Of a stretch of DNA of 64,000 nucleotides, positions 1 through 33,600 are shown one piece after another; positions within the stretch are counted from its first letter, which is position 1; each line of letters starts with the position of its first letter. The DNA comes from a virus. The notes under the pieces were generated by a model. It had not been told where the DNA came from and did no database searches. It was given only the letters and a program-made list of their open reading frames with translations. Location: IMG/VR virus record IMGVR_UViG_3300044970_002549, positions 27,158 through 91,157 of that record, one strand, 5' to 3'. The position numbers and the translations under genes are program-made.

Positions 1-87
1 ATTTGCGCGGAGTGCTATGCTGATGCGGCACACGCTTCGTTGGCAGAGGAGAGGATTGAGGAGATGAGAGACAATGGCAGCATTTAG
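1..87 (+). CDS. 3' end of a hypothetical early protein (partial)
   Basis: Frame 1 is open from base 1 (ICAECYADAA...GSI*) to TAG at 85-87 and overlaps the next start. Confidence 0.45.
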   Translation: MCAECYADAAHASLAEERIEEMRDNGSI

Positions 88-301
88 TTTCTACGAGTTC
101 ACGGAGGAGGAGGTTATCGCCTTCGTTCGCGCTCTGGTGCGCGGCGGGGACTTTGCTATTGGGCTTTCGTCAGGTGAGGCCATAGAGCGCGCCATAGACA
201 TCATTGACGAGCCGCACAAGTGGTCGCGTGAGATGACGGCGTGGCGAGCTGCCGGCTCACCATACACCTACACCTACATCAAAGAGGGCTTGACGGACTA
301 G
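74..301 (+). CDS. hypothetical early protein
   Basis: 75-aa ORF with GAGGAG SD upstream. Confidence 0.7.
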   Translation: MAAFSFYEFTEEEVIAFVRALVRGGDFAIGLSSGEAIERAIDIIDEPHKWSREMTAWRAAGSPYTYTYIKEGLTD

Positions 302-361
302 TCTGGCGGCTGTAAGGTGATGGTGTCGGGGCTTCCCGATAGACACAGAGAGGAGTAAGAG
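290..361 (+). promoter_or_regulatory. early cassette 1 promoter, +1 hairpin, GACACAG box and SD
   Basis: TTGACG(290)-17 nt-TAAGGT(313); 6 nt; stem GTCGGG-gctt-CCCGAT (325-340); GACACAG; AGGAG. Confidence 0.8.
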
Positions 362-604
362 ATGGACGAAGGGTTTGAGCAATCGGTCGAGATTCCGTTC
401 AGCAAGTTCTATGTTGCGGTAGCGCGCAAGGTTGAGGCCAAGTGCGGCCTGACCCCTGACGACCTTCCGGACATTGACTTCCGAGCGTTCTATTTGGAGC
501 GCGGTACGATTGAGGAGTACCGAGCAGCAATCGCGGAGTGCGTGTATGCCGTACTCGAAGGCGCAGGGTATCCCTTCGCTGATGAGGACGAGTACTACGC
601 ATGA
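362..604 (+). CDS. hypothetical acidic early protein
   Basis: 80-aa ORF behind AGGAG SD. Confidence 0.75.
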   Translation: MDEGFEQSVEIPFSKFYVAVARKVEAKCGLTPDDLPDIDFRAFYLERGTIEEYRAAIAECVYAVLEGAGYPFADEDEYYA

Positions 605-822
605 CTTCGATTTCCCGCAAGAGTGGTCGCTCGTGGAGTCAGTTCTCCGCTCGTACAAAGGCCGAGTACCTTCGGGAGTCGGCAGCGTGGGAGCGTGAGC
701 AGCGGCGTAGGCTATACATCAAGGGTGCGGTAGTAGTGGTTGCGTTTGCGGCCTTCGTACTCTTGGTGCTAGGATTCGGCGGCACGAGCGATTTCGTGCC
801 TGATGTGAGAGAGGTGGAGTGA
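601..822 (+). CDS. small membrane protein
   Basis: ATGA overlap with upstream stop; hydrophobic segment GAVVVVAFAAFVLLVLGFG. Confidence 0.7.
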   Translation: MTSISRKSGRSWSQFSARTKAEYLRESAAWEREQRRRLYIKGAVVVVAFAAFVLLVLGFGGTSDFVPDVREVE

Positions 823-1082
823 TGAGAGCAGAGGAACTATACGAGATTGGCGACGCAGGGTATCTGCGCGTGGACTTGCGCGACGATCTTTGGGTTGCGC
901 TGATGACGCAGGACGGAGTGAACTTCGGCGGTACGCTCTGGAGGGTATCTGATGGTCAGTACTACTCCGAAGGCTGTACGGCAGGGTATCCTGTGTTTTG
1001 TTTCGCTATGACTTCGGACGAGGCAGCTCGGCAGGTTGCGCTCTATATTGCGATGGAGTCGGGAGCCGAGGCTCTGCTGTAA
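819..1082 (+). CDS. hypothetical early protein
   Basis: GTGA overlap with upstream stop; GAGG SD. Confidence 0.7.
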   Translation: MMRAEELYEIGDAGYLRVDLRDDLWVALMTQDGVNFGGTLWRVSDGQYYSEGCTAGYPVFCFAMTSDEAARQVALYIAMESGAEALL

Positions 1083-1085
1083 GAC

Positions 1086-1158
1086 TTGACGCGGCCTATC
1101 TGGTCGTTTAGAATCGAGGAGTCGGGGCTTCCCGATAAGGCACAGCAAGGAGGAGATA
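1086..1158 (+). promoter_or_regulatory. early cassette 2 promoter, +1 hairpin, GGCACAG box and SD
   Basis: TTGACG(1086)-17-TAGAAT(1109); 6 nt; GTCGGGGCTTCCCGAT (1121-1136, identical to cassette 1); GGCACAG; AGGAGG. Confidence 0.85.
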
Positions 1159-1581
1159 ATGTCGGAAGCGTTTAGGGTCAATGTGAACGAGCAGGGCGAG
1201 TCATGGGTCGAGCGCATCGCATGGGGCGACAAGTCCGGCCTATCAGAGCACTACGCGGCGATTGGCTGCGAGCTCGTCCAAGTCGCAGGGTCGGGTGCGT
1301 TTGGCGGCGTTCCTGTGATTGTGTTCGTAGATGAGGAAGGCCTGTATCGTGAGCCTGTCCTGTTCAATCGTGTGGTGTGCGACTTCGTAGCCGAGGCCAC
1401 CGATTCGGCTCCTGCGTACATGATGGGCGGCGGCCTTGTGGGTCGTGCGCTTGTCTTGTTTGATAGCGGCAGCGATTCTCGCGGATTCACCAAAGAGGAA
1501 GCCGATAGAATCAGCGCGCAGCTCGAACACGGCGGCTATCCTACGCTCTCAATGTTCAGGGAGGACGAGCCGCTAGCGTAG
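1159..1581 (+). CDS. DUF3846-like protein
   Basis: IGCELVQV...VDEEGL...N...LVGRAL pattern resembles DUF3846 phage proteins. Confidence 0.65.
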   Translation: MSEAFRVNVNEQGESWVERIAWGDKSGLSEHYAAIGCELVQVAGSGAFGGVPVIVFVDEEGLYREPVLFNRVVCDFVAEATDSAPAYMMGGGLVGRALVLFDSGSDSRGFTKEEADRISAQLEHGGYPTLSMFREDEPLA

Positions 1582-1599
1582 CGCGTCCCTATTGACTAC

Positions 1600-1640
1600 G
1601 AGGCCGTCGGTGTCTGTGCCACCGGCGGCCTCACTTTATC
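1600..1640 (+). terminator. intrinsic terminator with TCTGTGC loop
   Basis: GAGGCCGTCGGTG / CACCGGCGGCCTC stem followed by a T-rich tail. Confidence 0.75.
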
Positions 1641-1642
1641 CG

Positions 1643-1710
1643 CTCATCATTATCAGGCCGCTATTATCAGACCCCCTACCATAGCCCCCCCCCCATACCC
1701 CACGCCCCAT
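1643..1710. repeat. intergenic (TCA/TTA/CTA)n cluster plus C4-tract module
   Basis: CTCATCATTATCAGGCCGCTATTATCAGACCCCCTACC... with four C-runs. Related modules start near 2333, 3056, 3155, 3789, 4388, 4482, 5478, 5641, 6320, 7107, 7209 and 7930. Confidence 0.8.
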
Positions 1711-1749
1711 CGCTACCGGTAGGCCGTGCCTCTGGTCGAAACTGGGGGC

Positions 1750-1825
1750 TTGACGAACGGCACAGGAGGCTCTACCTTGTATGAGTTGGCACTTGCTAAC
1801 AGCACAGGCACAGGAGGAGGAACAG
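1750..1825 (+). promoter_or_regulatory. early cassette 3 promoter, +1 hairpin, tandem GCACAG boxes and SD
   Basis: TTGACG(1750)-17-TACCTT(1773); 6 nt; GTTGGC-actt-GCTAAC; AGCACAGGCACAGGAGGAGG. Confidence 0.8.
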
Positions 1826-2257
1826 ATGAAAGACCTGACGACACCAGCGCAGAAGTGGCTGCGGGAGTTTCTCGGAACACAGGCCGTAGGGACTTGCCCT
1901 ACTTGCCGACAGGCTCTGCCAGAAGGCTCGTGCTTTCGGGCGTTCGTTCGCTACGGCGACGGCGATGACCTTGTGGCCTACACCAAGACTCGCGGTGAGG
2001 CTCTGGCCGTCCTGATCGGTTGGCGCGATGACGAGTGCGGCGATTCGTTCTGGGCTGATCGAGCAGACACTTGGAGCACCCTAAGCGTCGCGCAAGCGGT
2101 TGCTTTGGAGCACGCACCGGCGGCTCTGATCGTTGCTGCCGATGCTGACGAGAAGGTCTACGATGAACTCTTGGCCGCAGTCGAGTATGACTTCATCGGC
2201 ACACCGCTTGTCGGTGCTGTCTGGGTGGACGACCTTACGGCATACTCCGGCAAGTAG
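1826..2257 (+). CDS. hypothetical early protein with a CxxC motif
   Basis: Start moved to ATG 1826 (MKDLTT) because it follows the SD; CPTC motif. Confidence 0.7.
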   Translation: MKDLTTPAQKWLREFLGTQAVGTCPTCRQALPEGSCFRAFVRYGDGDDLVAYTKTRGEALAVLIGWRDDECGDSFWADRADTWSTLSVAQAVALEHAPAALIVAADADEKVYDELLAAVEYDFIGTPLVGAVWVDDLTAYSGK

Positions 2258-2274
2258 TCCGCTCGATTTTCTAC

Positions 2275-2316
2275 GAGGCCACTCCCCATCTGTGCGGGGG
2301 GTGGCCTCTTTCTATT
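2275..2316 (+). terminator. intrinsic terminator with TCTGTGC loop
   Basis: GAGGCCACTCCCC / GGGGGGTGGCCTC stem followed by TTTCTATT. Confidence 0.8.
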
Positions 2317-2446
2317 CCCTGAGCTTTACGCGGTCATCATTAGGCCGTCATTATGCGCTGGCTATTATGCGACCCCTTACCCCACACCCCGACACCCCAG
2401 ACCCCAGCGGTCGCGGTGCGCGCTCCGAAACTCCGCAGCGGGGGGC

Positions 2447-2524
2447 TTGACGCTAGGCCTCGGTGGGTGTACCTTCGATGTGTTGGGTGGCTATGCTCCC
2501 CCGACTAGCACAGAGGAGAACCAG
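2447..2524 (+). promoter_or_regulatory. early cassette 4 promoter and leader
   Basis: TTGACG(2447)-17-TACCTT(2470); 6 nt; GTTGGG...CCCGAC; TAGCACAGAGGAG. Confidence 0.8.
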
Positions 2525-2986
2525 ATGAAGGGGATGACCTACGAGCAAGCGCGCGAGGTGTGCGCCAAGTTGGGCGGGATGTTCTCCGTCCTGACCGCGT
2601 GGTCTGCGCCGACCACCCCGAAGGAGTTCGACCGCCGCAAGGAGAGCGCGGCGAGCCGTGAGGCCGAGCATCGTCCTATCGGGCGCGTCCAGACGACGGG
2701 CGAGCAAGTGGTAGACGACAAGGGGCGCGTTTCCTTTATGTATCGAGTATCGGGTCAAGTGAATCGGGACGAGCACCCAGAGGGCGTATACCTGACCAAG
2801 AAGGGAGAGCCTTGCGTTGATGTCGTCATCTCCGCTCCAACGGAGTACGGCTACACGACTGCTTGCAAGTACGCGGGAGTCGTCGGCTCGGCGTGTGAGC
2901 GTCGTCGCCCGTTCCACTCCCACCGCACTATCAACCTGACGCGGCTCGTGTCGTGGATGGTGTCGGGAGAGGAGCAGGTGCGCTAG
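2525..2986 (+). CDS. early protein, paralogue of 7392-7844
   Basis: Start moved to ATG 2525; shares GGMFxVLTxWSAPTT, GQVNRD, PEGVYL, APTEYGYTTAC and HRTINLTRLV with 7392-7844. Confidence 0.8.
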   Translation: MKGMTYEQAREVCAKLGGMFSVLTAWSAPTTPKEFDRRKESAASREAEHRPIGRVQTTGEQVVDDKGRVSFMYRVSGQVNRDEHPEGVYLTKKGEPCVDVVISAPTEYGYTTACKYAGVVGSACERRRPFHSHRTINLTRLVSWMVSGEEQVR

Positions 2987-3006
2987 GCCTCGCTTCGATT
3001 CGACCA

Positions 3007-3048
3007 GAGCACCCCGTCGGGCTTCGGCTTGGCGGGGTGTTCTATTGT
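3007..3048 (+). terminator. intrinsic terminator (cUUCGg loop)
   Basis: GAGCACCCCGTCGGG-CTTCGG-CTTGGCGGGGTGTTC followed by TATTGT. Confidence 0.8.
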
Positions 3049-3266
3049 CCGGTGTTTATCATCACGCCGTCATTACTCGACCCCCTACCCCGTCCCCCCA
3101 CCCCCCGCTCCCTCATCTCACTCTGTCGTGTCGTTTGATTCTGTCGAGCTGCTAGTCATCAGGTCATCATCACAGGGCTATTAGGCGACCCCCCATACGA
3201 CCCCCGCACCCCCCTTACCCCATTGCTGGATCGGTCGAGTGCTACCGCTCTGGCTCGTCTTGGCTC

Positions 3267-3343
3267 TTGACGGATTGACCGCTGCCGGCAATACTCGAAG
3301 TGTCGGGCGGCTCTGATCTGCTCGACTAGCACAGGAGGAACCT
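3267..3343 (+). promoter_or_regulatory. early cassette 5 promoter and leader
   Basis: TTGACG(3267)-17-AATACT(3290); 6 nt; GTCGGGCGG...CTGCTCGAC; TAGCACAGGAGG. Confidence 0.75.
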
Positions 3344-3733
3344 ATGTATAGGTTCATCGTATTCGTAAGGCGCGTGGTTGATGGCGTCGAGGATGCCGTA
3401 GGCGACACGCTGACCGCTGCCGGCCCTGACTGGGCGTACGACAAGACAGAGGCTGTCGCTACCGACGGCGGCTATCCTGAACCGATGGCTCACTCGGTCG
3501 CTCGCGGGATGACCCAGGCTGCGTATGCGCTGCTCGGTGGTCTGGACTTCTTTGTCCAAGAGTACGACGCTGAGGATGTCGCGGCAGGGTCGCTGACCCC
3601 AGAGGATAAGGAGATGGCGGCGGCTATCTCACTCGGCCTCCTCCCATCTGACGGATCGGTAGCCTTCGTCTCTGGTCTGGTCAATCGAGCAGACGCCAAG
3701 CCCTTCTGGTTCGTGGTCGCGGTTCACGACTAG
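3344..3733 (+). CDS. hypothetical early protein
   Basis: 129-aa ORF behind AGGAGG SD. Confidence 0.75.
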   Translation: MYRFIVFVRRVVDGVEDAVGDTLTAAGPDWAYDKTEAVATDGGYPEPMAHSVARGMTQAAYALLGGLDFFVQEYDAEDVAAGSLTPEDKEMAAAISLGLLPSDGSVAFVSGLVNRADAKPFWFVVAVHD

Positions 3734-3753
3734 CCGTACCGGTTGCGGTCATC

Positions 3754-3792
3754 GAATCCGTCTCACCCTTCGGGGTGGGGCGGATTCTTTTA
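3754..3792 (+). terminator. intrinsic terminator (cUUCGg loop)
   Basis: GAATCCGTCTCACCC-TTCG-GGGTGGGGCGGATTC followed by TTTT. Confidence 0.85.
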
Positions 3793-3905
3793 TGCCGTCA
3801 TTATCAGCGCGCTATTATGCGACCCCTAGCACCCCTGACCCCGCTCCCCCTTACCCCTTACGCTCTGGCGTGTCGCATGTCTGGCGCGCAGCTCGGCTGC
3901 TGCTA

Positions 3906-3986
3906 TTGACTTGACCGCGCCCGGCCGTATAGACTCATGGAAGTCGAGGGAGTAGGCACAGACCCCTCTCGGCACAGGAGGTCAAG
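3906..3986 (+). promoter_or_regulatory. early cassette 6 promoter and leader
   Basis: TTGACT(3906)-18-TAGACT(3930); 7 nt; GTCGAG...CTCGGC with GGCACAGAC in the loop; GGCACAGGAGG. Confidence 0.75.
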
Positions 3987-4328
3987 ATGACCGAGCAAAA
4001 GAAGGCGACCCTCTGGGTTGTCGAGGTGGTATGGAACGGCGAGCCTCATCGTTCGTTCTATGAGGATCGGGAGGAGGCAATCGCTGGGCTGGTGAGCCTA
4101 GCGGACTTTCTGGCTGACTTCACCAGAACCAACAAGACAGGCAGGGCAACCAATCGGGACTTGGAGACCGCTACGGAGTTTCTGCTAGATGATGACCGCT
4201 CGTCATGGGTTGATTGTTTGGAGATTACCGAGTCTGGCATTTGCCCAAGGTGCGAGGCGATGGTCGGCTGGTCTGGCGGCTACTGCGAGCCGTGCGGCTA
4301 CGAGTTCGGGAATCAACTGAACGACTAA
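3987..4328 (+). CDS. early protein with C-terminal zinc ribbon
   Basis: CPRC...CEPC motif; SD present. Confidence 0.75.
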   Translation: MTEQKKATLWVVEVVWNGEPHRSFYEDREEAIAGLVSLADFLADFTRTNKTGRATNRDLETATEFLLDDDRSSWVDCLEITESGICPRCEAMVGWSGGYCEPCGYEFGNQLND

Positions 4329-4350
4329 CGCGGCCGGGCGAAGGCAACAG

Positions 4351-4383
4351 GAAGCCGTCCCCTTCGGGGGGCGGTTTTTTGTT
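4351..4383 (+). terminator. intrinsic terminator (cUUCGg loop)
   Basis: GAAGCCGTCCCC-TTCG-GGGGCGGTTTTTT. Confidence 0.8.
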
Positions 4384-4595
4384 AGTCCTATTAGGTCATC
4401 ACATCACCCCCTACCCCAGCCCCCCCTTACCCCTAGAATCTCACGGCTTCCGATACGGCCGGTCGGAGTCAATAGTCGCAGCTCATCATTAGTCATCATC
4501 ATCACGCTATTACTTGACCCCCCATACCCCAGCGAGTCCGTTTCCCCTTGCCCCATCTGGTCGTTGCGTCTGGTGCGCCATCTGCTAGGTGGGGC

Positions 4596-4672
4596 TTGAC
4601 GTTGCCCGCACTTCGAACTAGTCTGGTGAGGTCGCAGGCTGGCACAGACCCGAAGCGACACAGGAGGTCTAG
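4596..4672 (+). promoter_or_regulatory. early cassette 7 promoter and leader
   Basis: TTGACG(4596)-17-TAGTCT(4619); 6 nt; GTCGC...GCGAC with GGCACAGAC in the loop; ACAGGAGG. Confidence 0.8.
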
Positions 4673-5167
4673 ATGTTCACGGAAACGAACGCAGATCGGC
4701 TCGTCGAGGTACGGGCAGCAATCAAGACAGCGATGGACTCCCTCACCGAGAAGGAGTTCGCCGCAGCAGCAGAGAGCAACACGGAAGCCGGTGGTGCTAG
4801 CCACCTCGTCGTCGTCCCTGCTGCTTTCTGGAATGACCACACCAGCCGCGACCTTGACTCGGTTTCGGTCGAGGTGCGGTCATCAAGCGCGGAGTGGGGA
4901 CTCTATGATGACGGCTCCTATGTCGTCCTGATGATGACTGACGACTCGCTCGCCGAGTTGGTGTCTGACTCAGCGTACTACTCCACTTCGTTTGATGAGG
5001 AGGACTACGGCTCACTCATGGAGTCGGCACGCCGTACCTTTCTCGCCTTGATGATCCAGTCGTCGGCTGCGCGTAGCCTGTTGGACTCGCGCACTTCCTA
5101 CGACAACCTGCGCTGGGCGTTGGGCTTGGAGCGAACCGATGCCGCAATCATCACTGGTGCGGCATGA
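4673..5167 (+). CDS. hypothetical acidic early protein
   Basis: 164-aa ORF behind AGGAGG SD. Confidence 0.75.
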   Translation: MFTETNADRLVEVRAAIKTAMDSLTEKEFAAAAESNTEAGGASHLVVVPAAFWNDHTSRDLDSVSVEVRSSSAEWGLYDDGSYVVLMMTDDSLAELVSDSAYYSTSFDEEDYGSLMESARRTFLALMIQSSAARSLLDSRTSYDNLRWALGLERTDAAIITGAA

Positions 5168-5394
5168 CTGCCGATGACCGCACTTCGACCTGCTCCGATT
5201 GCGAGCAGGTGCTAGGAGACTCGGCATGGTACGCCGACAACAACGGCGGACTCGGGCTGCTGATGTATTGCGACGGCTGCGAGGAGCGAAGGTCTGAACG
5301 CTATGGTTGCGCTCTCATCATCGCGGAGGGTTGCGGCTGCGTTCCGAGTGGTGCCGATTGCGCCTGTGGTTGCGGGGGTTCTGGGCAACTCTGA
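5164..5394 (+). CDS. small Cys-rich, probably metal-binding protein
   Basis: CSDC, CDGC and CGC...CACGC motifs; ATGA overlap. Confidence 0.65.
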   Translation: MTADDRTSTCSDCEQVLGDSAWYADNNGGLGLLMYCDGCEERRSERYGCALIIAEGCGCVPSGADCACGCGGSGQL

Positions 5395-5416
5395 ACCGCT
5401 GACCGCACTTCGACCT
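5175..5416 (+). repeat. 17-bp perfect direct repeat TGACCGCACTTCGACCT
   Basis: Copies at 5175-5191 and 5400-5416; related copy in the cassette 7 promoter at 4606-4624. Confidence 0.85.
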
Positions 5417-5420
5417 AGAC

Positions 5421-5457
5421 TCGCCCTCACTCTTTCGGGAGTGGGGGCGGTTCTTTT
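5421..5457 (+). terminator. intrinsic terminator
   Basis: TCGCCCTCACTCT-TTCG-GGAGTGGGGGCGG followed by TTCTTTT. Confidence 0.8.
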
Positions 5458-5753
5458 CCCCGGGGTTTAGATAGGGCCATCATCAGGCAACGCCTACCCC
5501 GACCCCCCACCCCATTCGTCAGGCTTGTTTATCAGGTCGTTCATCGGGGGTGTGCTGATACCCCCTAGCCCCAGTTCGTCGCTCTCCGTCGTTCCTACGG
5601 GGTCGTTTTTCTGGCGCGCAGCTGCGACCACGCTCACTCACCTCATTATCGAGCCACAGTCATCAGGTCATCATTGATCCCCTATACCCCACCAGCCATA
5701 CACCGCCCCCCTTCCCCCCTTGCCCCTTTGGCGTTGCGTCTGGTGCGACCCCC

Positions 5754-5831
5754 TTGTATTGCGGCCGTGCCTGTTGTACCTTTCAGATGTCGGGAGGCAA
5801 ATGACCTGCCGACTAGCACAGGAGGTCAGAG
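5754..5831 (+). promoter_or_regulatory. early cassette 8 promoter and leader
   Basis: TTGTAT(5754)-17-TACCTT(5777); 6 nt; GTCGG...CCGAC; TAGCACAGGAGG. Confidence 0.75.
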
Positions 5832-6185
5832 ATGACCAAGGAAGAACTGATCCAGCTACTTCGGGAGAAGCCCGACGCAATGCGAGCCCTGAACGGCGAC
5901 GGCCATGGGCTCTACGCGCCAGAGTGGTACACCGAGGTCGGCTGGCCTTCGGAGATGATCAGCCGGCTCAATGTCGTCCATACCAGCGACGGCACGACGA
6001 AGGGCTCCATGTGGGATCACGAAGGCAACATCATCGCGGAACAGCGAGCTGTGTATTCGCTGGACTTCCATGAGGCCGTTGCCAGCATCGTCGGCACCAC
6101 CGCGCATCACAGCATGTTCGGTCGGGGTTCGGCCGCACGCGCCATCGCCATCGAGGTCAGGGCAATCGTGGAGGTTGGAGCATGA
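5832..6185 (+). CDS. hypothetical early protein
   Basis: 117-aa ORF behind AGGAGG SD. Confidence 0.75.
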   Translation: MTKEELIQLLREKPDAMRALNGDGHGLYAPEWYTEVGWPSEMISRLNVVHTSDGTTKGSMWDHEGNIIAEQRAVYSLDFHEAVASIVGTTAHHSMFGRGSAARAIAIEVRAIVEVGA

Positions 6186-6268
6186 TGGAACTCATCGGTG
6201 AGGCAATCAGCGTTGCGACCTTCCTAGTGGCCGTGATTCTGTTCTTGGGTTGGAACTCAATGGTCTAG
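6182..6268 (+). CDS. 28-aa single-TM microprotein (not in the ORF track)
   Basis: MMELIGEAISVATFLVAVILFLGWNSMV; ATGA overlap, GGAG upstream, ends before the terminator. Confidence 0.6.
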   Translation: MMELIGEAISVATFLVAVILFLGWNSMV

Positions 6269-6290
6269 CCCAGTCCAGCTCGGAGAATCC

Positions 6291-6330
6291 GATGACCCCT
6301 CTGCCTTCGGGTAGGGGGGTCATCATTTAT
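6291..6330 (+). terminator. intrinsic terminator (cUUCGg loop)
   Basis: GATGACCCCTCTGCC-TTCG-GGTAGGGGGGTCATC. Confidence 0.75.
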
Positions 6331-6460
6331 GGCTATTCATCAGGTCATCATTATCAGGTCATAGTGCGACCCCTTACCCCATAGTCCGTGCCGTTCCCCT
6401 TGCCCCTGTCTGCTACTGGTTCTTGGGCAGCTGCGATCTGTTGCGCCTGGTGCGTAGTGC

Positions 6461-6534
6461 TTGCGCTTTTTGGTTGATGTGTTTAGACTCTAACTATCGG
6501 CGGCAATGCTTCGCTGATAGCACAGGAGGAAACT
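6461..6534 (+). promoter_or_regulatory. early cassette 9 promoter and leader
   Basis: TTGCGC(6461)-17-TAGACT(6484); 6 nt; ATCGGCG...CGCTGAT; AGCACAGGAGG. Confidence 0.75.
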
Positions 6535-7047
6535 ATGAACGGCAAGGGCAAAACCGGCGCACAGGCAGCAGTCGCACGAGCCGAGGCGTTGGCTCGGTAT
6601 CCAGAGAATCCAACGGCGGTGATGATCCGACCGATTGAGAGCCTCTATGGTCAAGTGTTCGCGGAGCCGACGAGCGCGATGCTCTCGGTCTTTCTTGCGC
6701 CTCGCGTTGAGATCGCATTGGAGCAGGGCGACCTCTGGCGGCAGCCTGTGAGGGTTGTACGCAAGGTGAACGAGTCAGAGATGACCTTCACCGCCGTCCT
6801 CATCGGTAGGGCAGCGCCAGAGAACGAGGCGATCCTCTGGCAGGGTGGCAACGCCCCAATGATGGGGTGGCTCCCTCTGGACGTCGCAGACTTCGCTGAT
6901 GATCACGATGTGGCGTGGTGGATCGCGTCCTGCTACGACGCTTCTAGCGGGGACGCTTATGCGCTCCATCGTCAGGCAGTCCGCAACATCACCACGAAGG
7001 CACGCGCCGCCTACGAAGCGCAGAACGGAGAGTCCGCTCCCTTCTGA
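6535..7047 (+). CDS. hypothetical early protein
   Basis: 170-aa ORF behind AGGAGG SD. Confidence 0.75.
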   Translation: MNGKGKTGAQAAVARAEALARYPENPTAVMIRPIESLYGQVFAEPTSAMLSVFLAPRVEIALEQGDLWRQPVRVVRKVNESEMTFTAVLIGRAAPENEAILWQGGNAPMMGWLPLDVADFADDHDVAWWIASCYDASSGDAYALHRQAVRNITTKARAAYEAQNGESAPF

Positions 7048-7070
7048 TCAAGTCCGGCGACAGGGCAACG

Positions 7071-7103
7071 GAGCCGATCCCTTCGGGGGTCGGCTCTTTT
7101 GTT
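7071..7103 (+). terminator. intrinsic terminator (cUUCGg loop)
   Basis: GAGCCGATCCC-TTCG-GGGGTCGGCTC followed by TTTT. Confidence 0.85.
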
Positions 7104-7316
7104 AGTTCATCATCAGTTCATCATCAGAGGCCAGTCGCACCCCTTACCCCTAGCCCCGAGTCTTGGCTCGGTCTGATCGAAGCGTGGGCAATCGTCGCAG
7201 CTTACGCGGTTATCATTAGGTCAGTCATTACTCATGAGCCAGTAGGCGACCCCTCTACCCCTTACCCCTCTGGATAGGGCGAGTCCGGCGCAAGGGCAAC
7301 CCGCACCGCCTACCCC

Positions 7317-7391
7317 TTGCGCTGCCCTGTTCTGTGGTAGGCTTTGGTTGTCGGGGGAAGGCACAGACCCGAACCGACAAAGGAGGAAACG
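7317..7391 (+). promoter_or_regulatory. early cassette 10 promoter and leader
   Basis: Extended -10 TGTGG-TAGGCT(7338); 6 nt; GTCGG...CCGAC with GGCACAGAC in the loop; AAGGAGG. Confidence 0.7.
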
Positions 7392-7844
7392 ATGAAGGCA
7401 GGTATGACCTTCGCAGCCGCAAGGGCGGCAGCAGCAAAGAGCGGCGGTATGTTCGTCGTTCTTACTGGGTGGAGCGCGCCGACCACGGACAAATGCCGGG
7501 AGAAGCGACGCGAAGCGGCAGCAGGGCGAGCCGCCGAACACCGCGCCATCGGGCGCGTGAAGGTGGAAGCCACAGCCGAGAACGGCGTGGTGCTGTTCCG
7601 CGTTGCGGGTCAGGTGAACCGCGACCAGTACCCAGAAGGCGTGTACCTCAACAAGAAAGGCGAGCCTTGCGTTGGCATCGTCATCGGAGCCCCGACCGAG
7701 TACGGCTACACGACCGCGTGTCCGTATGCAGGGAAGGCAGGAAGCGCATGCGAGAACCGCAGACCCTTCCACGCGCACCGCACCATCAACCTCACGCGCC
7801 TAGTGGCGTGGGAGATTGCAGGAGAGCAGCAGCCCCTCGGCTGA
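7392..7844 (+). CDS. early protein, paralogue of 2525-2986
   Basis: Start moved to ATG 7392 behind AGGAGG; long identical blocks shared with 2525-2986. Confidence 0.8.
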   Translation: MKAGMTFAAARAAAAKSGGMFVVLTGWSAPTTDKCREKRREAAAGRAAEHRAIGRVKVEATAENGVVLFRVAGQVNRDQYPEGVYLNKKGEPCVGIVIGAPTEYGYTTACPYAGKAGSACENRRPFHAHRTINLTRLVAWEIAGEQQPLG

Positions 7845-7862
7845 CCGCCCGCCAGATTTTGT

Positions 7863-7908
7863 AGAGAGCGCACCCTCCGCCCTTCGGGGTGGGGGGTGTT
7901 CTCTTTGT
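7863..7908 (+). terminator. intrinsic terminator (cUUCGg loop)
   Basis: AGAGAGCGCACCCTCCGCCC-TTCG-GGGTGGGGGGTGTTCTCT followed by TT. Confidence 0.8.
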
Positions 7909-8058
7909 CTGGCCAGCAGTACGGCGTGCCATTACCCGCTCATCGATTTACCCCAACCCCTCGCATAGAACAGATGACCCCCCCTACCCATGCGCGCGCT
8001 ACGTGCAAATCAACATTTGACCAATCTGTGGCGATTACCCCTCAACCCCTCTTCCTGC

Positions 8059-25474: not shown

Positions 25475-26137
25475 ATGCTTACACTTGGATCTGGTGTAGT
25501 CAAGGTGGCGTTCTGGAAGTCTGGAGCCGTCATCGGGCAAACCTCAAACTATTTTGCTAGCACCTCAGGCTACGGCAACACGGGCCAGCTCGTGACCGTT
25601 GGCGAGGTTGGTGGCGACGTCGAGTTCGACATTAACTTCCAGGAGCGAGAGTTCTACGGCCAGTCGAACTTCCCAATCGCTAAGGCGTTCTTCGGCGGTC
25701 GCGCCGACATCCGCGCCCGCGGTGTGGAAATCAACTGGGACAACGTTAAGAACCTGTTCCACGTATCGCTCGGTGAGGGCACCACGCTTGATTCGACGGC
25801 GTATGCCTATGCACACGACGACTTTACTGGCGGATCGTACTCCGTAAACTTCGACCCAGATGGCGGTCGCCCAAACACCGGCATCAGCAACGTCACGGCT
25901 CTCATGGGCCTTCCACGACCGCTGTATGTCAAGTTTGAGCACATCCGCTCGGACGACCCGTCGAAGTCGGTCATTATCCATTTGCCAAAGGCGTACAGCA
26001 TGCAGCTCATGATGCCATTCACCCGTGAAGACATTGCCCGACAGGACATTGACTTCTCGGCTGTTGTGGACCGCGACTGCAAGGTCACGTCAGGCTCTTC
26101 GAGCGCGACCCCATCGGTCGTTCTCATCGAGGCGTAA
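25475..26137 (+). CDS. tail tube protein 1
   Basis: LTLGSG...GEVGGDVEF...IIHLPKA...F; lies between the terminator and chaperone genes. Confidence 0.75.
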   Translation: MLTLGSGVVKVAFWKSGAVIGQTSNYFASTSGYGNTGQLVTVGEVGGDVEFDINFQEREFYGQSNFPIAKAFFGGRADIRARGVEINWDNVKNLFHVSLGEGTTLDSTAYAYAHDDFTGGSYSVNFDPDGGRPNTGISNVTALMGLPRPLYVKFEHIRSDDPSKSVIIHLPKAYSMQLMMPFTREDIARQDIDFSAVVDRDCKVTSGSSSATPSVVLIEA

Positions 26138-26158
26138 TAGAAAGAGGGGGTCACAAAC

Positions 26159-27022
26159 ATGTTTACACTAGGTAGCGGTCGACTTCAAGTCGGCACCTGG
26201 ATTTCTGGCGGTCTTTATACTCAGGTCACGGGCGTGTCTGTGACCCCCTCAACTGCCTCGGGCACCCTCCTGGCCGGCACGTACTATGTACGTGTCGCCG
26301 GGAAGAACTCTGCTGGCGTTGCCACGCCATCTGAAACGTACATTACTGTACTATCAGCAACCGGCAAACTCACAGTCAACTGGAGCGCTCTTACCGGCGC
26401 GACCGATGGCTACGATATTTACGTTGGAACTGTAAATGGCTACGACTGGAAGCAGGGCGCTGTCGCTTCTGGGACCACCACTTTCGAAGTGACGTCCCTT
26501 ACCGACCCTGCCGGAGCGGATCTTGCCCAATACAAGGGTATGCAGGATATTGGCGAAATTGGCGGCGATGTCGAGTTTGACATCAGCTATCAGGAGCGCG
26601 AATTCTATGGCCAGTACAACTTCCCAATTGCAAAGGCCCACTTCGGCGGCACGTCGAATATCCGCGTCCGAGGTCTCGAGCTTGATCCAATGCGCTTCTC
26701 CAGGCTCTTTAGCACTACTGTGACGAATAATGCAAGCACCTCAATCTATCCTGGAACCCTCCAGTTCCGCGAGAGCCTCAACTTCGGAACTGCGGCTGTA
26801 AACCCGCTTGACCTGTCGATGCTTCGCAACCGACCGGTGCGATGCACCTTTGCGCACACGCGATCTGACGACCCTTCAAAGTCTGTCAATATCGTTGCGC
26901 ATAAGGCCTGCATTTACCAGCACAATATTCCGTTTACACGTGAGGACATCATCAAGGTTGATATGGAGTTCAACCTGCAGTATGATTCCAGCACGGCGCA
27001 GATCGTGACAATCACGGCCTAA
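26159..27022 (+). CDS. tail tube paralogue 2 with Fn3/Ig-like insertion
   Basis: Shares GGDVEFDI-QEREFYGQ-NFPIAKA and RSDDPSKSV with tube 1; insertion GTYYVRVAGKN...VNWSALTGA..YDIY. Confidence 0.75.
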   Translation: MFTLGSGRLQVGTWISGGLYTQVTGVSVTPSTASGTLLAGTYYVRVAGKNSAGVATPSETYITVLSATGKLTVNWSALTGATDGYDIYVGTVNGYDWKQGAVASGTTTFEVTSLTDPAGADLAQYKGMQDIGEIGGDVEFDISYQEREFYGQYNFPIAKAHFGGTSNIRVRGLELDPMRFSRLFSTTVTNNASTSIYPGTLQFRESLNFGTAAVNPLDLSMLRNRPVRCTFAHTRSDDPSKSVNIVAHKACIYQHNIPFTREDIIKVDMEFNLQYDSSTAQIVTITA

Positions 27023-27636: not shown

Positions 27637-30600
27637 GTGGCGGAAGAAAATGTCGCAAGAGTTGGCATAGCTCTTGATTCTGCCGCATTCCAGGACGGGG
27701 TATCCCGCGCCCTTCGTGACATCGATCGACTCCTCAGCGGACTCAAGACACTACAGAACGCCAACAGGCAACTCTCCCTTGCTTCTGGAGGCGGACTCTT
27801 CGGCACCGGTTCTAGGTCCCCCGTTGCCAACTTTGCCCGAGACATAAATCGGACAGCGATACCGGCCCTGCGCGATATGGAACGCAATGCGCTCCGTGTT
27901 GGCGGGGCCGTTCGCCGTTCCATGACAGAAATGTCCAGAATGGCATCTGTAGCAGAGCAGGCGCAAGTTCGGCAAGAGCGAGCGATCCTTGCCGGGGAGC
28001 GTCGAGCAATGAGTTCCCGCCGAGGTCGCGGCGGCAGATATCGGGACGAAGGGCTTTTTGGTGCAGTCCCTGCAGATCCTCGAGTTGGATCATTCGAAGA
28101 CCCGCGCAGCCCGTCAGGAAAGATTGCCGCAAGATACGTCCTGCGCACCCTAGAAGAACTCATTACATCAGAGGCAGAAAGCTACCCGCGCATCATGCAA
28201 CCTCGCCCCAGGGGTGGAGCTGGTCGGCAGGCAAGCGTTGGCTCAGAGCAAACTGTTTCTAGCGTCGCAAGCAAGTTTGCCCCGGGTCGAATCTTTAACA
28301 CGTCAACAAACCTAGAAGAGGGACTCCCAGTTACCATCGTTGGTCCTGGCGGGGAAAAGTTTGTTTTGTCAGGGAATGGTCGCGTCATGGGCATGCGTCG
28401 CCTCTCTCAACAGCAGCAAGGACGAGTTCCAATTGTTTCTGCAGTAGAGACATTTGTTGCTGGAAACCCGTCCCTGTTCGGCGGCGCTGAGGGCGTAGAG
28501 GAAACGCTTCGACAGGTTGCAAAAATTGCCAAAGCCAAGCAAACGCCGATACTTACTCGTGAGCTCACACAAACCATCGAGCAGATTGGCGCGCGAGAAG
28601 CCGGGAAACTTGGGCTTGGGCTAAACACTCGCACAGCGATGTCAGAAGCCGAGATGGCAATGGCCGTATCAAAGCTTTTGCAGCGCCCACCGACTGGCCT
28701 TGCAAAGGGAACGCCAGGAAAAGTGCTGTCAGGTGGTGGAGAACCTGTTCGTGAGTTTATTAGCCAAGTACTGGAAGTTCTTCCACCGCAGGTAGTTAGG
28801 TCACGATATCAAACTAGTTCTGGTGAATCAAATAAGCAGTTCCAACAGCTCCTAGAGGGCGTTGCAATGTCGTCTGCGTACGGAAGCAACCCTGCGACAG
28901 AGGCAATGATCACTCGCCTTCTTGAAGGAGGTAAGACTGGCTTGCCTCCGGCTCTTTCTGGAGCGCTTCGGAAAAATCTCGGACCGCAACTAACTCTGCG
29001 TGGTCGAATCGCTTCCGGCGAAATCCCTGCAGAGATGGACCCAATTTACAACAACCTCCCCCAGGCAATCGAGCTATTGACCCAGGCTCAAAAGTCATAC
29101 GGTCCGCGGTTTATGGCCGAACAGATTGGAACGCAGCAAGGCATGGAGCCCGCATCACCACAGGCTCTTAAGCTTGCTCAGGCCATGCGCAAGGCTGGAA
29201 CAGCCGGCCTTCCAGCATTCTTTGAGTCTATTGCCCAGTATGGAAAGAGGGCAGTGTCTGCTACTGCGCCAACGCTAGGACTTGATCCCGGAGCATTTGT
29301 TGCTGACCCAGAGGCGGCAATTCGCATTGCATCCGAAGCGGCCTCCAAATTTGCATCACACAAGGGACCAAAGACAGAGGGCATCCTCTCGTCAATTGTC
29401 GAGGCTGCCATTCGAGAGTTTGCAACACCAGAAGTAATTCAGCCGGTTGCCAAAAAGGCGGCAAAAGGAGCAGCTGCACGAACCGTTGAAAAGGCAGTCG
29501 AAACAAAGGTTGAGCAGGTTGCCGAGGCAGTCGCTGAGGCGGTTACTGACCCAAGAGCCACTAGCATGCGACGACCAGAGTCTGAGCGCTTCTTCAAGGT
29601 AAATCCCCGAGCCATCGGCACAGCCGCAGGATCAGAAAGGGCCCGTTCAGGAGGATACGTCCCATACGGCGAGGCTTCCGAAGCACAGCGTGGCAAGTAC
29701 AACATGACGCTTCTTGGAGGGTATGCAGAGCTAGAAAAGCAATACGAAGAGGCGCAAAAAGAAGCTGAATACATGAAGGAAAACTTTGCCACTAGGCCAG
29801 GGGCCACTCCACACGCTTCAGTCCAGAAAGCAGAAGCACTGCGAGCAAAGCTTACCGAGCTAAGAGGTGTCATGATTGAGCGCGGCCTTCATAAGCCAAC
29901 TATGGCAGAGCAAATTGCAGAGCTATTCACCGGCCCTTCCTCATCATCGTCTGGCCTGACCCCAACCAGAACCTCCGGAGGCGGGGGTGGCGGTGGAGGC
30001 GGGGGACGTCGACGAGGGCCTTCTGGCGGTGGCGGAGGCGGGGAGGAAGAGGAGAAGACCCCTAAGTGGATTCAGAGTTTCCAGGGGGCTCTAGCTGCAT
30101 CCGGGCTTGACCCTCAAACTTTAAAGTACATGACCTCTGGGTTCAAGTTTGGCGCCACCCAGGCTGCCATTGAACCGGGTCTTTTTTCGCAGTCACGCGC
30201 ATCTCTTGAGGCACTTCAGCAATTCGCTGCAGTCCGCCAGCTCAGCATGGTTCAGATGTCTCGTGGGCTTGTTGGTAGCGGAGCAAATGGTTTCTGGCAG
30301 CCACAAGAGGCTGGTGAACGTGGTGGCATTGCTCTTGGTGGATTTGGTGCGAGGACTGCCGCCCCACTCCTAAGGACAATGATTCACGAAATAGCACACG
30401 GCACATTCGAGTCCCTGGTTGCCGGCGGGTACAAGCCTCAGACGAAAGTAGAGATGTATGGGCCAAAGGGAGAAGCGCTTGGCCCGGTAAATGCGCGTCA
30501 AATGCTTGCGCCATTCAAAGAAACAACGGCCAGCGGACACGTCGATCCAGCATTCTATCGATCTCAGGCAATGATCAGCAAGGCTGGCGGCGCGTTACTT

Positions 30601-33600
30601 CCGCAGCTTGCATTTCACAGGATGGTCGAAGAGGTCATGCCGCAGGGACATCTTACCGAGGGAATTGGGTTGGGCAAATTCTCGCAGCTGCTCACCCCGC
30701 ACCTTAAAGAGTTTGCATCTCCCGAGCAGTCAACAGCAGCAGAAGAGTTTGTCAAGTTCTCCGCACGCATCATGGAAGCGACAAACAACTTTACTCAGGG
30801 CGGTATCGGAAAGGGTGGCGCGCTTAGCGTTCTCTCGGAAGGCCTGCAGCAGCTTGGCGCATCAAGCAAGGCGTTCCCTTCAACATTCTTCCTTGAGGCT
30901 GCATCTGTTGTAGGAAATACCCTAAAGAACCTCGAGGCCGGAGACCCGGATAACCTGACCAAGGTTGCAAAGTCGCTCATGAATGCTGCAGCCCTTACCA
31001 TTGGCGAGGGGGAATTCAGGCCTGGCGTAGCAGTTGCGTCAAATGCAGCAAAAGAAGTCGCAAACTACCTTGCTTCAGCAAGCATTGAAGAGAAGGCGGC
31101 AATTGCGCTTGGGGCAAACCCGAAACTTCTTGGAGACACTTCATTTAACCCTGGCAACGAAGGGCATGTCCAGAAGGTTAACGAGGCAATTGCAAACATT
31201 TCTCGTGTCGCATCTGAAACATCACGCGGCGTTGCCGTAGCCCGATTCGTTGGCGGACAGAGAGTCGAGACCCCATACGCTGCGGCCGCAGGACTTCTCG
31301 GTCCGGCTGCGCCTGGAACGCTTGCCGCACAAACGTCTCCACTCCAGTTCCCAGGAGGAAGCCTTGCGCAAAGAATGGCTTACTACGGGTCTCAATCAAC
31401 AGGCCAGCGCGGCATGGAAAGTGCAATCCCTGGAGCGTATCTGCGTGCCAAGGAAGGACAATTTATTGGAATGGGGCCAGCCTACCAGCAGGCATATGCT
31501 TCCGCCCGAAATCGCCAAGAGCTAGAAGCGGGCATCAAATCATCTGCTAAAAGCGAATACGTTCAATCTGCCAACGCGGCCATGCGGTATGCCGAGGTGC
31601 AAAGCCGACTAAACCTGATTGTCCAAAATGGCAATGTCAACTTCTCGCAGCTTTCCAGAGTCCTAACAGACGCAGGCACTGGATTCACCGTCTCCGCAGC
31701 AAATGCGCTCAAGTTTGCTGCCGCCATTGCTGTTGGCCAGCAAATTACCGGCTCGATTGTTGGCGTATTTGAACATCTTAAGGGTGGCATCCTTGGATTC
31801 AACGCAATGCTTGAGTCTGCGAGCGTCGGCTTTACAACGTTGTTCAAGAATGCGGGACGGTCCGTACGAGACGCTGAGTCAGAAACAGCGAAAACAATCA
31901 CCACGCTTCGAGAATTTGCCAACGTTACCAACTTCCGATTCGGAGACCTGGAGACTGCCGCCCTGCGAATGCAAGCGTTCGGATTTGAGGTCGACACCGC
32001 AAGGGCGGCGCTTAAAAAGCAAATGCCAGTTCTCTATGAGGTAAATAACGTTCTCGAGAGAAACGCAACTGGCCTCAAGACCTTCCGTGGGGCACTTGTA
32101 AACATCGGAGATGCGGTAGCGGCACTTGGCGGAGAAGACGACAAGCTTCGAAGAATTACGTACGCACTCGGGCAAATGAACTCTGCTGGTCGCGTATACC
32201 AGAACGACATGATGCAGCTGGCAAACGCCGGTATCGCTGGATACGACATTCTCGCCAAGGCTCTTTTGCAAGAGATTTCCGCAAGCCCAGAACTAAAGAA
32301 GGCCAACGCCGCAATCTACAACAAGCTGATGAATCCAGAGACTGCGGTTGAAGAGGTCCGAAGACTCGCCAAGAGCGGACGACTGTTTGGACCAGGAGCT
32401 GTTCAAGCAATCCTGAAGGGCCTCGAGGAGAGGTACGGCGGGGGAATGAAAGCGTTCTCAAGAACATTCCAGGGAGCGATGACGACAGTTGCCGACACCT
32501 CCCAGTCGCTTGTAGCAACTGCCTTCAACCCACTGTTCTCCGTTGTCCGCGACCTTACGATTCAGCTTGCTGACTTCCTGCAGCAGCCAGAAGCTGAGGC
32601 CGGGGCAAAGAATCTTGCAAAGGCAGTTCTTAGCGTTTCTAATGCAATTAGGACAGGGCTCCCATCTGCACTCTCGACCGCAGATAAGATTCTATCGTCT
32701 ATTACTGGGACATTTGGCAGTCTTGCAGGAAGCGCTGCTGAGGGGACAAGCAGCCTTGGCGGGTTTGTTAGAAACACCATTAAGGGTCTTTCAACTTTCG
32801 GTGATGTTCTAGAAAACTCAGTCATTCGCAAATTTGGATCAGCTCTTGTTGTGGCCAAGCTTTTGTTTGGATTTATTGCCGCAAACCCCCTTCTTGCAAC
32901 GCTGACAGCCGGGACTGCCGGAATCGGGTTCCTTGCCACAGCAATCCAAGAAAATCAGTTTGGGCTTGGAACTGCATTCCAAAAGATAGCTGTCCCGCTT
33001 GAGCAGACCCTTGAAAACCTTGGCAACAATATTATGCCAAGCCTTTCTAATACGCTTACAGCTGCCGCAGGAGTAATTGGCGCAACCATCGCATCCATCA
33101 TGACGGCAATCTCCCCGTTGCTAGAAATTATTTTGAATGTATTGAATATTGTAACTTCTGCCGTAAAGCCATTCTCTTCGGTCCTTGGAGTTGCTCTTGC
33201 GCTATTTATTGGAAAGAAAGTACTAATAGACGGAGTGGCGTCAGCAATGGCCAGATTTGCAATGTTCACCGAGAAAGCTGCTGGATCCGTCGACAACATG
33301 AAAATGAAGTGGTTTGCCGGTCGGGAACTTCAGGCATTTGAGCGATTCGGAAACACGACAATGGGCGCTCAGATGGTTGCCCCTCAATACAACAAGCAGG
33401 GTGAGCTGACCCAGGCTGGAAAGGTCCAATTCGGTCAATTTGGTGGGGCCGGAATGGGATACAGCAGTCCACTTCTTTACAAGATTTTCATGGCCCAGAT
33501 GAAGGAAATGGCTGGCGCGCAAGGATTTGAGTTCCAAAATCTTGCCGGCGATCCAACTGGCGCAGAGAAGTTGACGCTGGAGACCACGCCGATTGCCAAG

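Follow-up and report, generated by a model that had tools for sequence, protein, structure and literature searches.

The phage T7 gene 10 leader and the B. subtilis aprE leader carry stem-loops at their 5′ ends that stabilize the mRNA. The E. coli ompA and papA and the B. subtilis ermC leaders are built likewise, with a stem-loop at the 5′ end, virtually no unpaired 5′ nucleotide and a strong ribosome-binding site (RBS) behind it, and this arrangement blocks 5′-end-dependent decay in known cases (PMC3997798). The same review lists 5′-terminal stem-loops and strong Shine-Dalgarno sequences (SDs) among the known mRNA stabilizers, and reports that BsRppH needs at least two unpaired 5′ nucleotides, that 5′-terminal base pairing blocks RNase E and that ribosomes on a strong SD block RNase J. 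Here we describe a set of leaders in the early region of a virus, analyzed in a window of 64,000 nucleotides (nt) comprising bases 27158–91157 of the 91,157-bp IMG/VR record IMGVR_UViG_3300044970_002549. These leaders begin with a hairpin at the predicted transcript start and carry a short sequence, GCACAG (the box), whose complement forms the loop of two terminator hairpins in the same array. We propose that the hairpin protects the 5′ end and that the box is a separate tag for RNA pairing, and we give this explanation as a whole a probability of about 0.5.

S. aureus RNAIII has C-rich anti-SD loops, including one in its terminator hairpin. In S. aureus icaR (PMC3868564) and B. subtilis hbs (PMC5737220), a 3′ untranslated region (UTR) is reported to pair with the 5′ leader of its own mRNA at or near the SD and to control translation or decay. 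We return to these systems below.

A covarying hairpin at the predicted start of early leaders

The early region is built from a series of self-contained units. Each has a promoter and a leader followed by between one and three small genes, and most also have a terminator. In ten units of the window, whose elements were located by script, the order is a TTGAC-like −35, a TAnnnT −10, 6 nt (7 nt in unit 6), a stem-loop, GCACAG, an SD and ATG (Table 1). The promoters are of the housekeeping-sigma type (TTGAC-17/18-TAnnnT) and look functional, since both hexamers are kept in orthologous units whose spacer and 6-nt discriminator have been scrambled. An earlier note on this sequence had picked out these ten leaders, and all of its stems and boxes are present, with the stem at the distance from the −10 that it gave; two promoters needed correction, as the −10 of unit 5 is AATACT and the −35 of unit 10 lies only 15 nt from its −10 (unit-10 orthologues have good promoters, TTGACT-16/17). 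The feature is larger than the ten units counted at that time. Another box unit, the eleventh, is found immediately upstream of the window, the unit-1 operon contains an internal unit that had been missed and whose orthologues keep both promoter and hairpin, and six more promoters upstream (genome 18.4–24.6 kb) have a hairpin 6 nt after the −10 but carry TAGTAGTAGGAGG or TAGCAGGAGG instead of GCACAG. The 91-kb phage record holds at least 17 hairpin leaders, and its relatives about 100 further ones.

The hairpin is fixed in position relative to the promoter. When hairpins were enumerated explicitly in 66 candidate promoter-leader units from this genome and four relatives, with shuffled sequences as control, the best hairpin began 5–7 nt after the −10 in 37 units, against 8.5 expected, and the mean stability was −9.0 kcal/mol compared with −5.3 kcal/mol in the shuffles. 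A larger set gave the same position in 88 of 157 units. The reverse test, across the whole genome, found about 16 GC-rich hairpins with an R(C/G)TT loop, nine of which sit 5–7 nt behind a promoter. In the window the stem opens with a purine (G, once A) at the predicted +1, at a distance of 6 nt from the −10 (7 nt in unit 6), and eight of the ten units have their first three nucleotides paired in thermodynamic ensembles.

Pairing is retained while the sequence changes, as the earlier note had proposed. We aligned 37 short-leader units that were picked by promoter and SD spacing only, blind to pairing, and found 81% of the cells of a six-pair helix paired versus 64% after shuffling, with 42 cells changed on both sides (13.6 in shuffles) and compensatory change in all six pairs. 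Sliding the partner by one to three columns lowered pairing to 30–61%, and RNAalifold independently predicted the identical helix. Among the non-Watson-Crick stem cells, read on the sense strand, 22 were G·T and one was A·C, an asymmetry that would be meaningless for duplex DNA or a cruciform and therefore places selection at the level of the sense-strand RNA. Orthologues of unit 9 likewise show compensatory stem changes (ATCAGCG, CTCGGCG/CGCTGAG, TTCGGTGG/CCACCGA).

Within one genome the arms differ from unit to unit (GTCGGG, GTTGGC, GCGGGG, GCCGCA, GCACGAG) and the loops range from 4 to 19 nt. The stem has 5–9 base pairs, usually six with an RCUU tetraloop; of 26 loops, 13 read ACTT, nine GCTT and two AGTT. 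Six of the ten window units have loops of 9–19 nt without RCUU and retain both position and stem. In the distant relatives G001–G004 and G010 hairpins follow the same grammar and likewise prefer ACUU or GCUU loops. A search of the window against Rfam returned no match at gathering score, and at E up to 1 the only matches in positions 1–8000 were at chance level. From sequence comparison, it is very probable that selection maintains a genuine RNA hairpin at the predicted 5′ end.

The GCACAG box as a lineage-specific tag

The box sits in the linker between stem and SD (as GACACAG in unit 1) or, in units 6, 7 and 10, in the hairpin loop as GGCACAGAC; a second GCACAG in unit 6 (3972–3977) overlaps the 3′ arm of the hairpin. 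Ensembles predict the box to be mostly unpaired, and in unit 1 they give it a probability of 0.91 of being unpaired while the 5′ nucleotides are paired. GCACAG is not enriched window-wide (30 copies, 43 expected), so its significance lies in placement: 13 plus-strand copies cluster in 1140–7366, nearly all of them in leaders. Across approximately 115 non-redundant hairpin leaders of near relatives, the box is in the linker in 37, in the hairpin loop in 12 and absent from 66.

The position of the box changes between related leaders. Unit-6 orthologues in L105, L106, L113 and L117 have it in the linker (GCCGGC-agtt-GCCGGT-GGCACAGA), whereas in this genome it is in the loop. The genes of units 4 and 10 (window 2525–2986 and 7392–7844) are paralogues with 65% amino acid identity (E 6e-61) and no family match; the two leaders have different stem sequences, and the box is in the linker of one and in the loop of the other. 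Orthologous leaders also swap TAGCACAGGA with GTAGTAGGA. Constraint nevertheless acts on the box itself: in unit 3 the tandem GCACAGGCACAGGA is invariant in ten relatives in which the flanking non-coding bases are saturated and spacer and discriminator diverge. The distant relatives examined have no GCACAG at the box position and carry homogenized tags of their own, AGGAGGACAC in G001, GTAGCA-AGGAGG in G004 and AGAGTG(T/A)-AGGAGG in G010.

Hairpin and box are therefore not one motif, as distant relatives have the hairpin without GCACAG, six leaders of this phage lack the box and orthologues have lost or moved it. The earlier note had joined the two in one undescribed cis-regulatory motif; what stands of this is the stem at the predicted 5′ end, selected at the RNA level and unmatched in Rfam, while GCACAG is, by its distribution, a separate and lineage-specific tag confined to near relatives. 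We ruled out the box as an extension of anti-SD pairing: this would require an AGAAA-like sequence ahead of GGAGG, and the tags at this place differ between relatives. The promoter spacer of unit 3 (window 1756–1770) holds GGCACAGGAGG, a copy of box plus SD between −35 and −10, which may be a relic of cassette duplication.

Terminator loops complementary to the leader tags

On the plus strand of the early array the reverse complement TCTGTGC occurs exactly twice, both times as the loop of a terminator hairpin, behind the unit-2 and the unit-3 genes (Table 1). Together with its closing pairs the unit-2 loop reads GUCUGUGCC and is complementary to the GGCACAGAC loops in units 6, 7 and 10, and the predicted duplex between the unit-7 leader and this terminator loop reaches −24.2 kcal/mol compared with −10.4 kcal/mol for shuffled partners. 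Predicted tag-loop duplexes are 4–14 kcal/mol better than those with shuffled partners. Among relatives, 24 distinct terminators have the (A)TCTGTGC loop; their stems are 99% paired with compensatory change in six pairs and with sense-strand G·U, while CUGUGC itself never changes.

Lineages with other tags have other loops. In G010 the tag AGAGUG(U/A) is present in 12 leaders, and a 12-bp hairpin with the loop CACACUCU stands behind one of the tagged units (AGAGUGU/CACACUCU). In G004 the tag GGTAGCA occurs in six leaders, and the terminator loop AUGCUACC belongs to the very unit whose leader reads GGUAGCAU. Matches within a unit are also seen in G002, G003 and G004, where GCUGCGA or GUUGCGA faces AUCGCAGC, and in G001, where UGGAGAG faces AUUCUCCA. 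One set of orthologous units shows a compensatory switch, with UGAUGAG/CUCAUCA in L106 and GGAUGAG/CUCAUCC in L116 and L117. Most terminators carry UUCG-type tetraloops; several of those with loops of 7–10 nt match the leader of their own unit best, and others match no leader. When the loop letters were shuffled, the observed count of matched leaders was reached in 3–49 of 2000 trials per genome. The strength of the tag-loop case, as judged from these comparisons, lies in its repetition across lineages with different sequences.

A further set of loops lies close to the array. At L110:8976–9041 (genome 25975–26040, just before the window) two tandem hairpins follow a RadC-like gene and read CGGTGG-CTCCTC-CCACCG and CCCCGCCGGTGG-CTCCTC-CCATCGGCGGGG, with CUCCUCCC across the loop and 3′ arm of both. 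Such an anti-SD motif resembles that of cuckoo RNAs and is complementary to the leaders' GGAGGAG; in relatives the loops at this site are TTCCTC or AGTCCTC. A TTGACA promoter precedes a stretch of about 360 nt (L110:9100–9500, genome ~26100–26500) that separates the RadC-like gene from the first GCACAG unit and has no SD-led open reading frame (ORF); this stretch contains UUGUGC, and no clear anti-box was found in it.

A proposed protective hairpin and pairing tag, and the alternatives

With the stem at the predicted +1 and a purine as its first base, we infer a transcript without a single-stranded 5′ end. Such a transcript, beginning with the first stem base, would offer no substrate end to RppH-type pyrophosphohydrolases, to the 5′ sensor of RNase E or to RNase J, and the terminal hairpin would act jointly with the strong AGGAGG 6–12 nt behind it. 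Because a 5′-terminal position and a strong, close SD are both established stabilizer arrangements, we read the hairpin as a protective stem-loop, and by analogy with these arrangements we lean towards 5′-terminal stabilization of early mRNA as its role.

For the box, a single-stranded RNA-binding protein cannot explain the complementary sequences, and a duplex-DNA site would need a new protein for each pair, so RNA-RNA pairing is the simplest account. We tentatively, and with some reserve, take GCACAG to be a site of RNA-RNA pairing, on the pattern of complementarity described above. The single-stranded tag, before the SD or in the loop of the 5′ hairpin, would base-pair with the fixed 7–8-nt terminator loops behind units 2 and 3, either in cis, as a 5′–3′ contact within one mRNA, or in trans, with a stable 3′ hairpin fragment that would act on every tagged leader in the manner of cuckoo RNA or RNAIII loops. 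This pairing would give the phage a single RNA handle on the translation or decay of all tagged early mRNAs. The earlier note's idea that the leaders offer one site for coordinated control thus survives in the form of a tag that matches terminator loops and changes together with them, and not in the form of a protein site. A bolder version, which we hold to be possible but doubtful, is an RNA addressing system in which stable 3′ terminator hairpins accumulate and kiss the tags, including those in 5′ loops, so as to shut off or retime translation of the tagged set, or in which each mRNA is closed 5′ to 3′; tags and loops would then co-evolve as private codes.

Several observations weigh against this picture of protective hairpin and pairing tag. 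A generic stabilizer would need neither a conserved RCUU loop nor a G·U closing pair, and both hint at a specific partner. Some orthologous leaders have no box (unit 1 in L104 and L105). The pairings span just 6–9 nt, the per-genome shuffle tests are moderate (p ~0.002–0.02), and since several loops were inspected multiple testing applies. Only two of the 11 box units are followed by a complementary loop, which for the other nine favors either action in trans or mere inheritance; UUCG-type terminators stand behind units 4–7, 9 and 10. Finally, leaders look homogenized within each genome, so that shared cassette ancestry explains part of the recurrence of the box.

The alternative to which we give most weight, though we consider it unlikely, is that GCACAG has no partner. 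It would be the form that an unstructured, CA-rich spacer or a standby site ahead of the SD takes in this lineage; duplication and gene conversion of cassettes would have spread it, and the loop complementarity would be without function. The homogenization of leaders within G001, G004 and G010, the interchange of TAGCACAGGA and GTAGTAGGA, the origin of units 4 and 10 as gene duplicates and the modest shuffle statistics would all fit. Such a spacer does not account for three lineages with three tags, each with a hairpin loop complementary to its own tag, nor for loops that stay fixed while the terminator stems covary, for a box that is single-stranded in loop and linker alike or for a double box in unit 3 that is invariant amid saturated non-coding bases.

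The RCUU loop and G·U closing pair keep alive a second alternative, in which the hairpin mainly serves to bind a protein, encoded by phage or host, that reads the RCUU loop on a G·U-closed stem, as in boxB/N-like antitermination or at a translational operator, with 5′ protection secondary. The loop bias is strong across lineages, the 16-mer GTCGGGGCTTCCCGAT is unchanged in divergent genomes, and the terminators that close most units could be read through. Yet the six window units with long non-RCUU loops keep stem and position, every unit has its own promoter, which makes antitermination unnecessary, neither a boxA-like element nor a candidate protein was found, and the small early proteins gave no family match. 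We regard this alternative as quite improbable.

Palindromic operators of one genome share the same half-site at a fixed spacing. A role of the inverted repeats as operators on the DNA, at +1 to +16 and bound by a dimeric repressor that shuts off the early promoters, is very unlikely: the tetraloop class does form 16-bp palindromes right downstream of the −10, the classic operator position, but half-sites differ between units of one genome while each remains self-complementary, the arms are 4 to 19 nt apart, and mismatches are nearly all sense-strand G·T (22 versus 1 A·C), which contradicts a duplex-DNA site. On these grounds, variable half-sites and spacing within a genome and strand-asymmetric wobble, we ruled out a palindromic DNA operator.

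CsrA/RsmA sites have a GGA core, typically in a hairpin loop and often as twin sites, in a host that encodes CsrA. The earlier note's suggestion that GCACAG and the SD form a site of this type is scarcely credible, as nothing speaks for it beyond the SD itself and the CAGGA-like strings that arise where the box abuts GGAGG, whereas the box contains no GGA, its loop copies read GGCACAGACCC, no GGA follows the box or loop copy in units 1, 2, 4, 6, 7 and 10, and unrelated tags replace the box in relatives.

The phage, its relatives and the early array

Among the proteins encoded in the window are a portal and protease-like and capsid-like proteins, and a 3549-amino-acid ORF (window 27637–38286) matches a tape-measure domain. 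Since these are the portal, protease and capsid genes of an ordinary tailed phage alongside a tape-measure domain, the source is, by gene content, an uncultured long-tailed phage and not an N4-like one. N4-type phages have a giant virion RNA polymerase gene and promoters with a 3-nt-loop DNA hairpin upstream of +1. Hairpins near a giant ORF first led us to suspect promoters of this type, and we ruled them out because the giant ORF matches a tape measure and not an RNA polymerase. The same protein also has a ddrB-type ParB domain close to its N terminus.

A search for close relatives returned no near-identical cultured phage, and portal identity to cultured-phage relatives is below 25%. A related portal is encoded by at least 139 viral contigs, mainly from environmental metagenomes, and the portals of the distant relatives G001–G004 and G010 are 55–66% identical. 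In the host search the sole genome match was a 1-kb contig binned to a metagenome-assembled genome (MAG) of Phycisphaerales, too weak for host assignment. A RadC-based search for remoter early arrays returned mainly the same clade; L147 and L148 have no units fitting the promoter-leader pattern, and the partial records G006–G009 have no recognizable early array. The exact 15-mer GACTAGCACAGGAGG gave 19 matches in viral contigs, all in unrelated contexts and hence attributed to chance.

Table 1. Elements of the early units and of the two terminator hairpins with box-complementary loops; positions refer to the window unless marked as genome positions
Feature	Position	Strand	Promoter	Hairpin	Box or loop	Other
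Unit 1	290–364	+	−35 TTGACG 290–295; −10 TAAGGT 313–318	GTCGGG-gctt-CCCGAT 325–340	GACACAG 342–348	SD 350; ATG 362
Internal unit, unit-1 operon	746–821	+	TTGCGG-18-TAGGAT	GGCACGAG-cgat-TTCGTGCC ~781–800	no box	GTG 819
Unit 2	1086–1161	+	TTGACG-17-TAGAAT	1121–1136	GCACAG 1140–1145	ATG 1159
Unit 3	1750–1828	+	TTGACG-17-TACCTT	GTTGGC-actt-GCTAAC 1785–1800	tandem GCACAG 1802–1807 and 1808–1813	ATG 1826
Unit 4	2447–2527	+	TTGACG-17-TACCTT	2482–2505 (12-nt loop)	GCACAG 2508–2513	ATG 2525
Unit 5	3267–3346	+	TTGACG-17-AATACT	3302–3326	GCACAG 3329–3334	ATG 3344
Unit 6	3906–3989	+	TTGACT-18-TAGACT, then 7 nt	3943–3973	GGCACAGAC in loop (box 3956–3961)	ATG 3987
Unit 7	4596–4675	+	TTGACG-17-TAGTCT	GTCGC...GCGAC 4631–4659	GGCACAGACCC in loop (4642–4647)	ATG 4673
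Unit 8	5754–5834	+	TTGTAT-17-TACCTT	5789–5813	GCACAG 5816–5821	ATG 5832
Unit 9	6461–6537	+	TTGCGC-17-TAGACT	ATCGGCG...CGCTGAT 6496–6518	GCACAG 6520–6525	ATG 6535
Unit 10	7317–7394	+	weak −35 TTGCGC, 15-nt spacer; −10 TAGGCT 7338–7343	GTCGG...CCGAC 7350–7378	GGCACAGACCC in loop (7361–7366)	ATG 7392
Eleventh box unit	genome 26499–26570					just upstream of window
Unit-2 terminator hairpin	1600–1632	+		13-bp stem	loop UCUGUGC 1613–1619, complement of GCACAGA	dG −27.4, z −5.3
Unit-3 terminator hairpin	2275–2308	+		13-bp stem	loop AUCUGUGC 2288–2295, complement of GCACAGAU	dG −29.7, z −5.8

Outside the early array, strong 9-bp hairpins also follow two promoter-like sites on the minus strand, at genome 17136 (before the window) and window 49051, but at other offsets, 8 and 2 nt after the −10. 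The gaps between units, from terminator to next promoter (window 1640–1745, 2310–2445, 3040–3260, 3790–3900, 4385–4590, 5460–5750, 6320–6460 and 7100–7315), carry TCATCATTA- or CTATTATGCGAC-type boxes followed by C-rich runs (CCCCTTACCCC, CCCCACACCCCGACACCCC), which on the minus strand would make tracts capable of forming G-quadruplexes.

Comparison with known systems

Both parts of the proposed explanation resemble known principles; what appears new is their systematic arrangement, in a phage group without a cultured member. If the hairpin works as proposed, the early units would represent a modular design for long-lived messages, consisting of promoter, 5′ cap-like hairpin, strong RBS and terminator, and such leader parts would be directly reusable as expression modules. 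Pairing between tag and terminator loop, if it takes place, would be a compact, RNA-only control of a whole class of phage genes, and tag and loop form a simple pair of 7-nt sequences open to compensatory mutation. In the literature searched we found no published description of such tag/terminator-loop complementarity in a phage.

Lambda nut sites consist of a boxB hairpin with a conserved purine-rich pentaloop and an upstream boxA. The leaders described here share with them a promoter-proximal hairpin and a conserved linear box in early transcripts, but the order is reversed, with the linear box downstream of the hairpin, the loops are RCUU or 9–19 nt in length and thus variable and without a GNRA-like pentaloop, there is a promoter for every unit, and an N-like protein was not identified. 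We therefore do not place them in the nut class. From the ompA, papA and ermC stabilizers, which they resemble in architecture, they differ in that the hairpin follows a genome-wide rule, with 17 or more early units per phage, has a preferred RCUU loop with a G·U closing pair and is conserved across a phage group. The polypurine or STAB-SD stabilizers of phage SP82 early RNA and cryIIIA, as cited in the review above (PMC3997798), likewise have a strong SD-like purine run near the 5′ end, and the boxless leaders of this phage read GTAGTAGGAAGGAG; here the purine run is combined with a terminal hairpin, and its stabilizing effect is putative.

On the side of the tag, the closest relatives belong to the class of hairpin-loop antisense and 5′–3′ pairing, in which pairing in vivo changes translation or decay, and the array shows two features of this class, an exposed loop complementary to the leader beside the SD and a loop and target that change together in relatives. 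As in icaR and hbs, the leader that several of the long terminator loops match best is that of the same unit, yet the partner at the 3′ end here is the terminator-hairpin loop itself, the pairing is limited to 6–9 nt and the same tag stands on many other mRNAs. Like the cuckoo/CcsR RNAs, whose variable stems show a fixed loop (CCUCCUCCC) complementary to the RBS regions of many targets (PMC4615179), the phage terminators present an unchanging loop on changing stems. In contrast to cuckoo and RNAIII, this loop would target a private tag beside the SD and not the SD itself, it sits at the 3′ end of early phage mRNAs, and both tag and loop differ between related phages.

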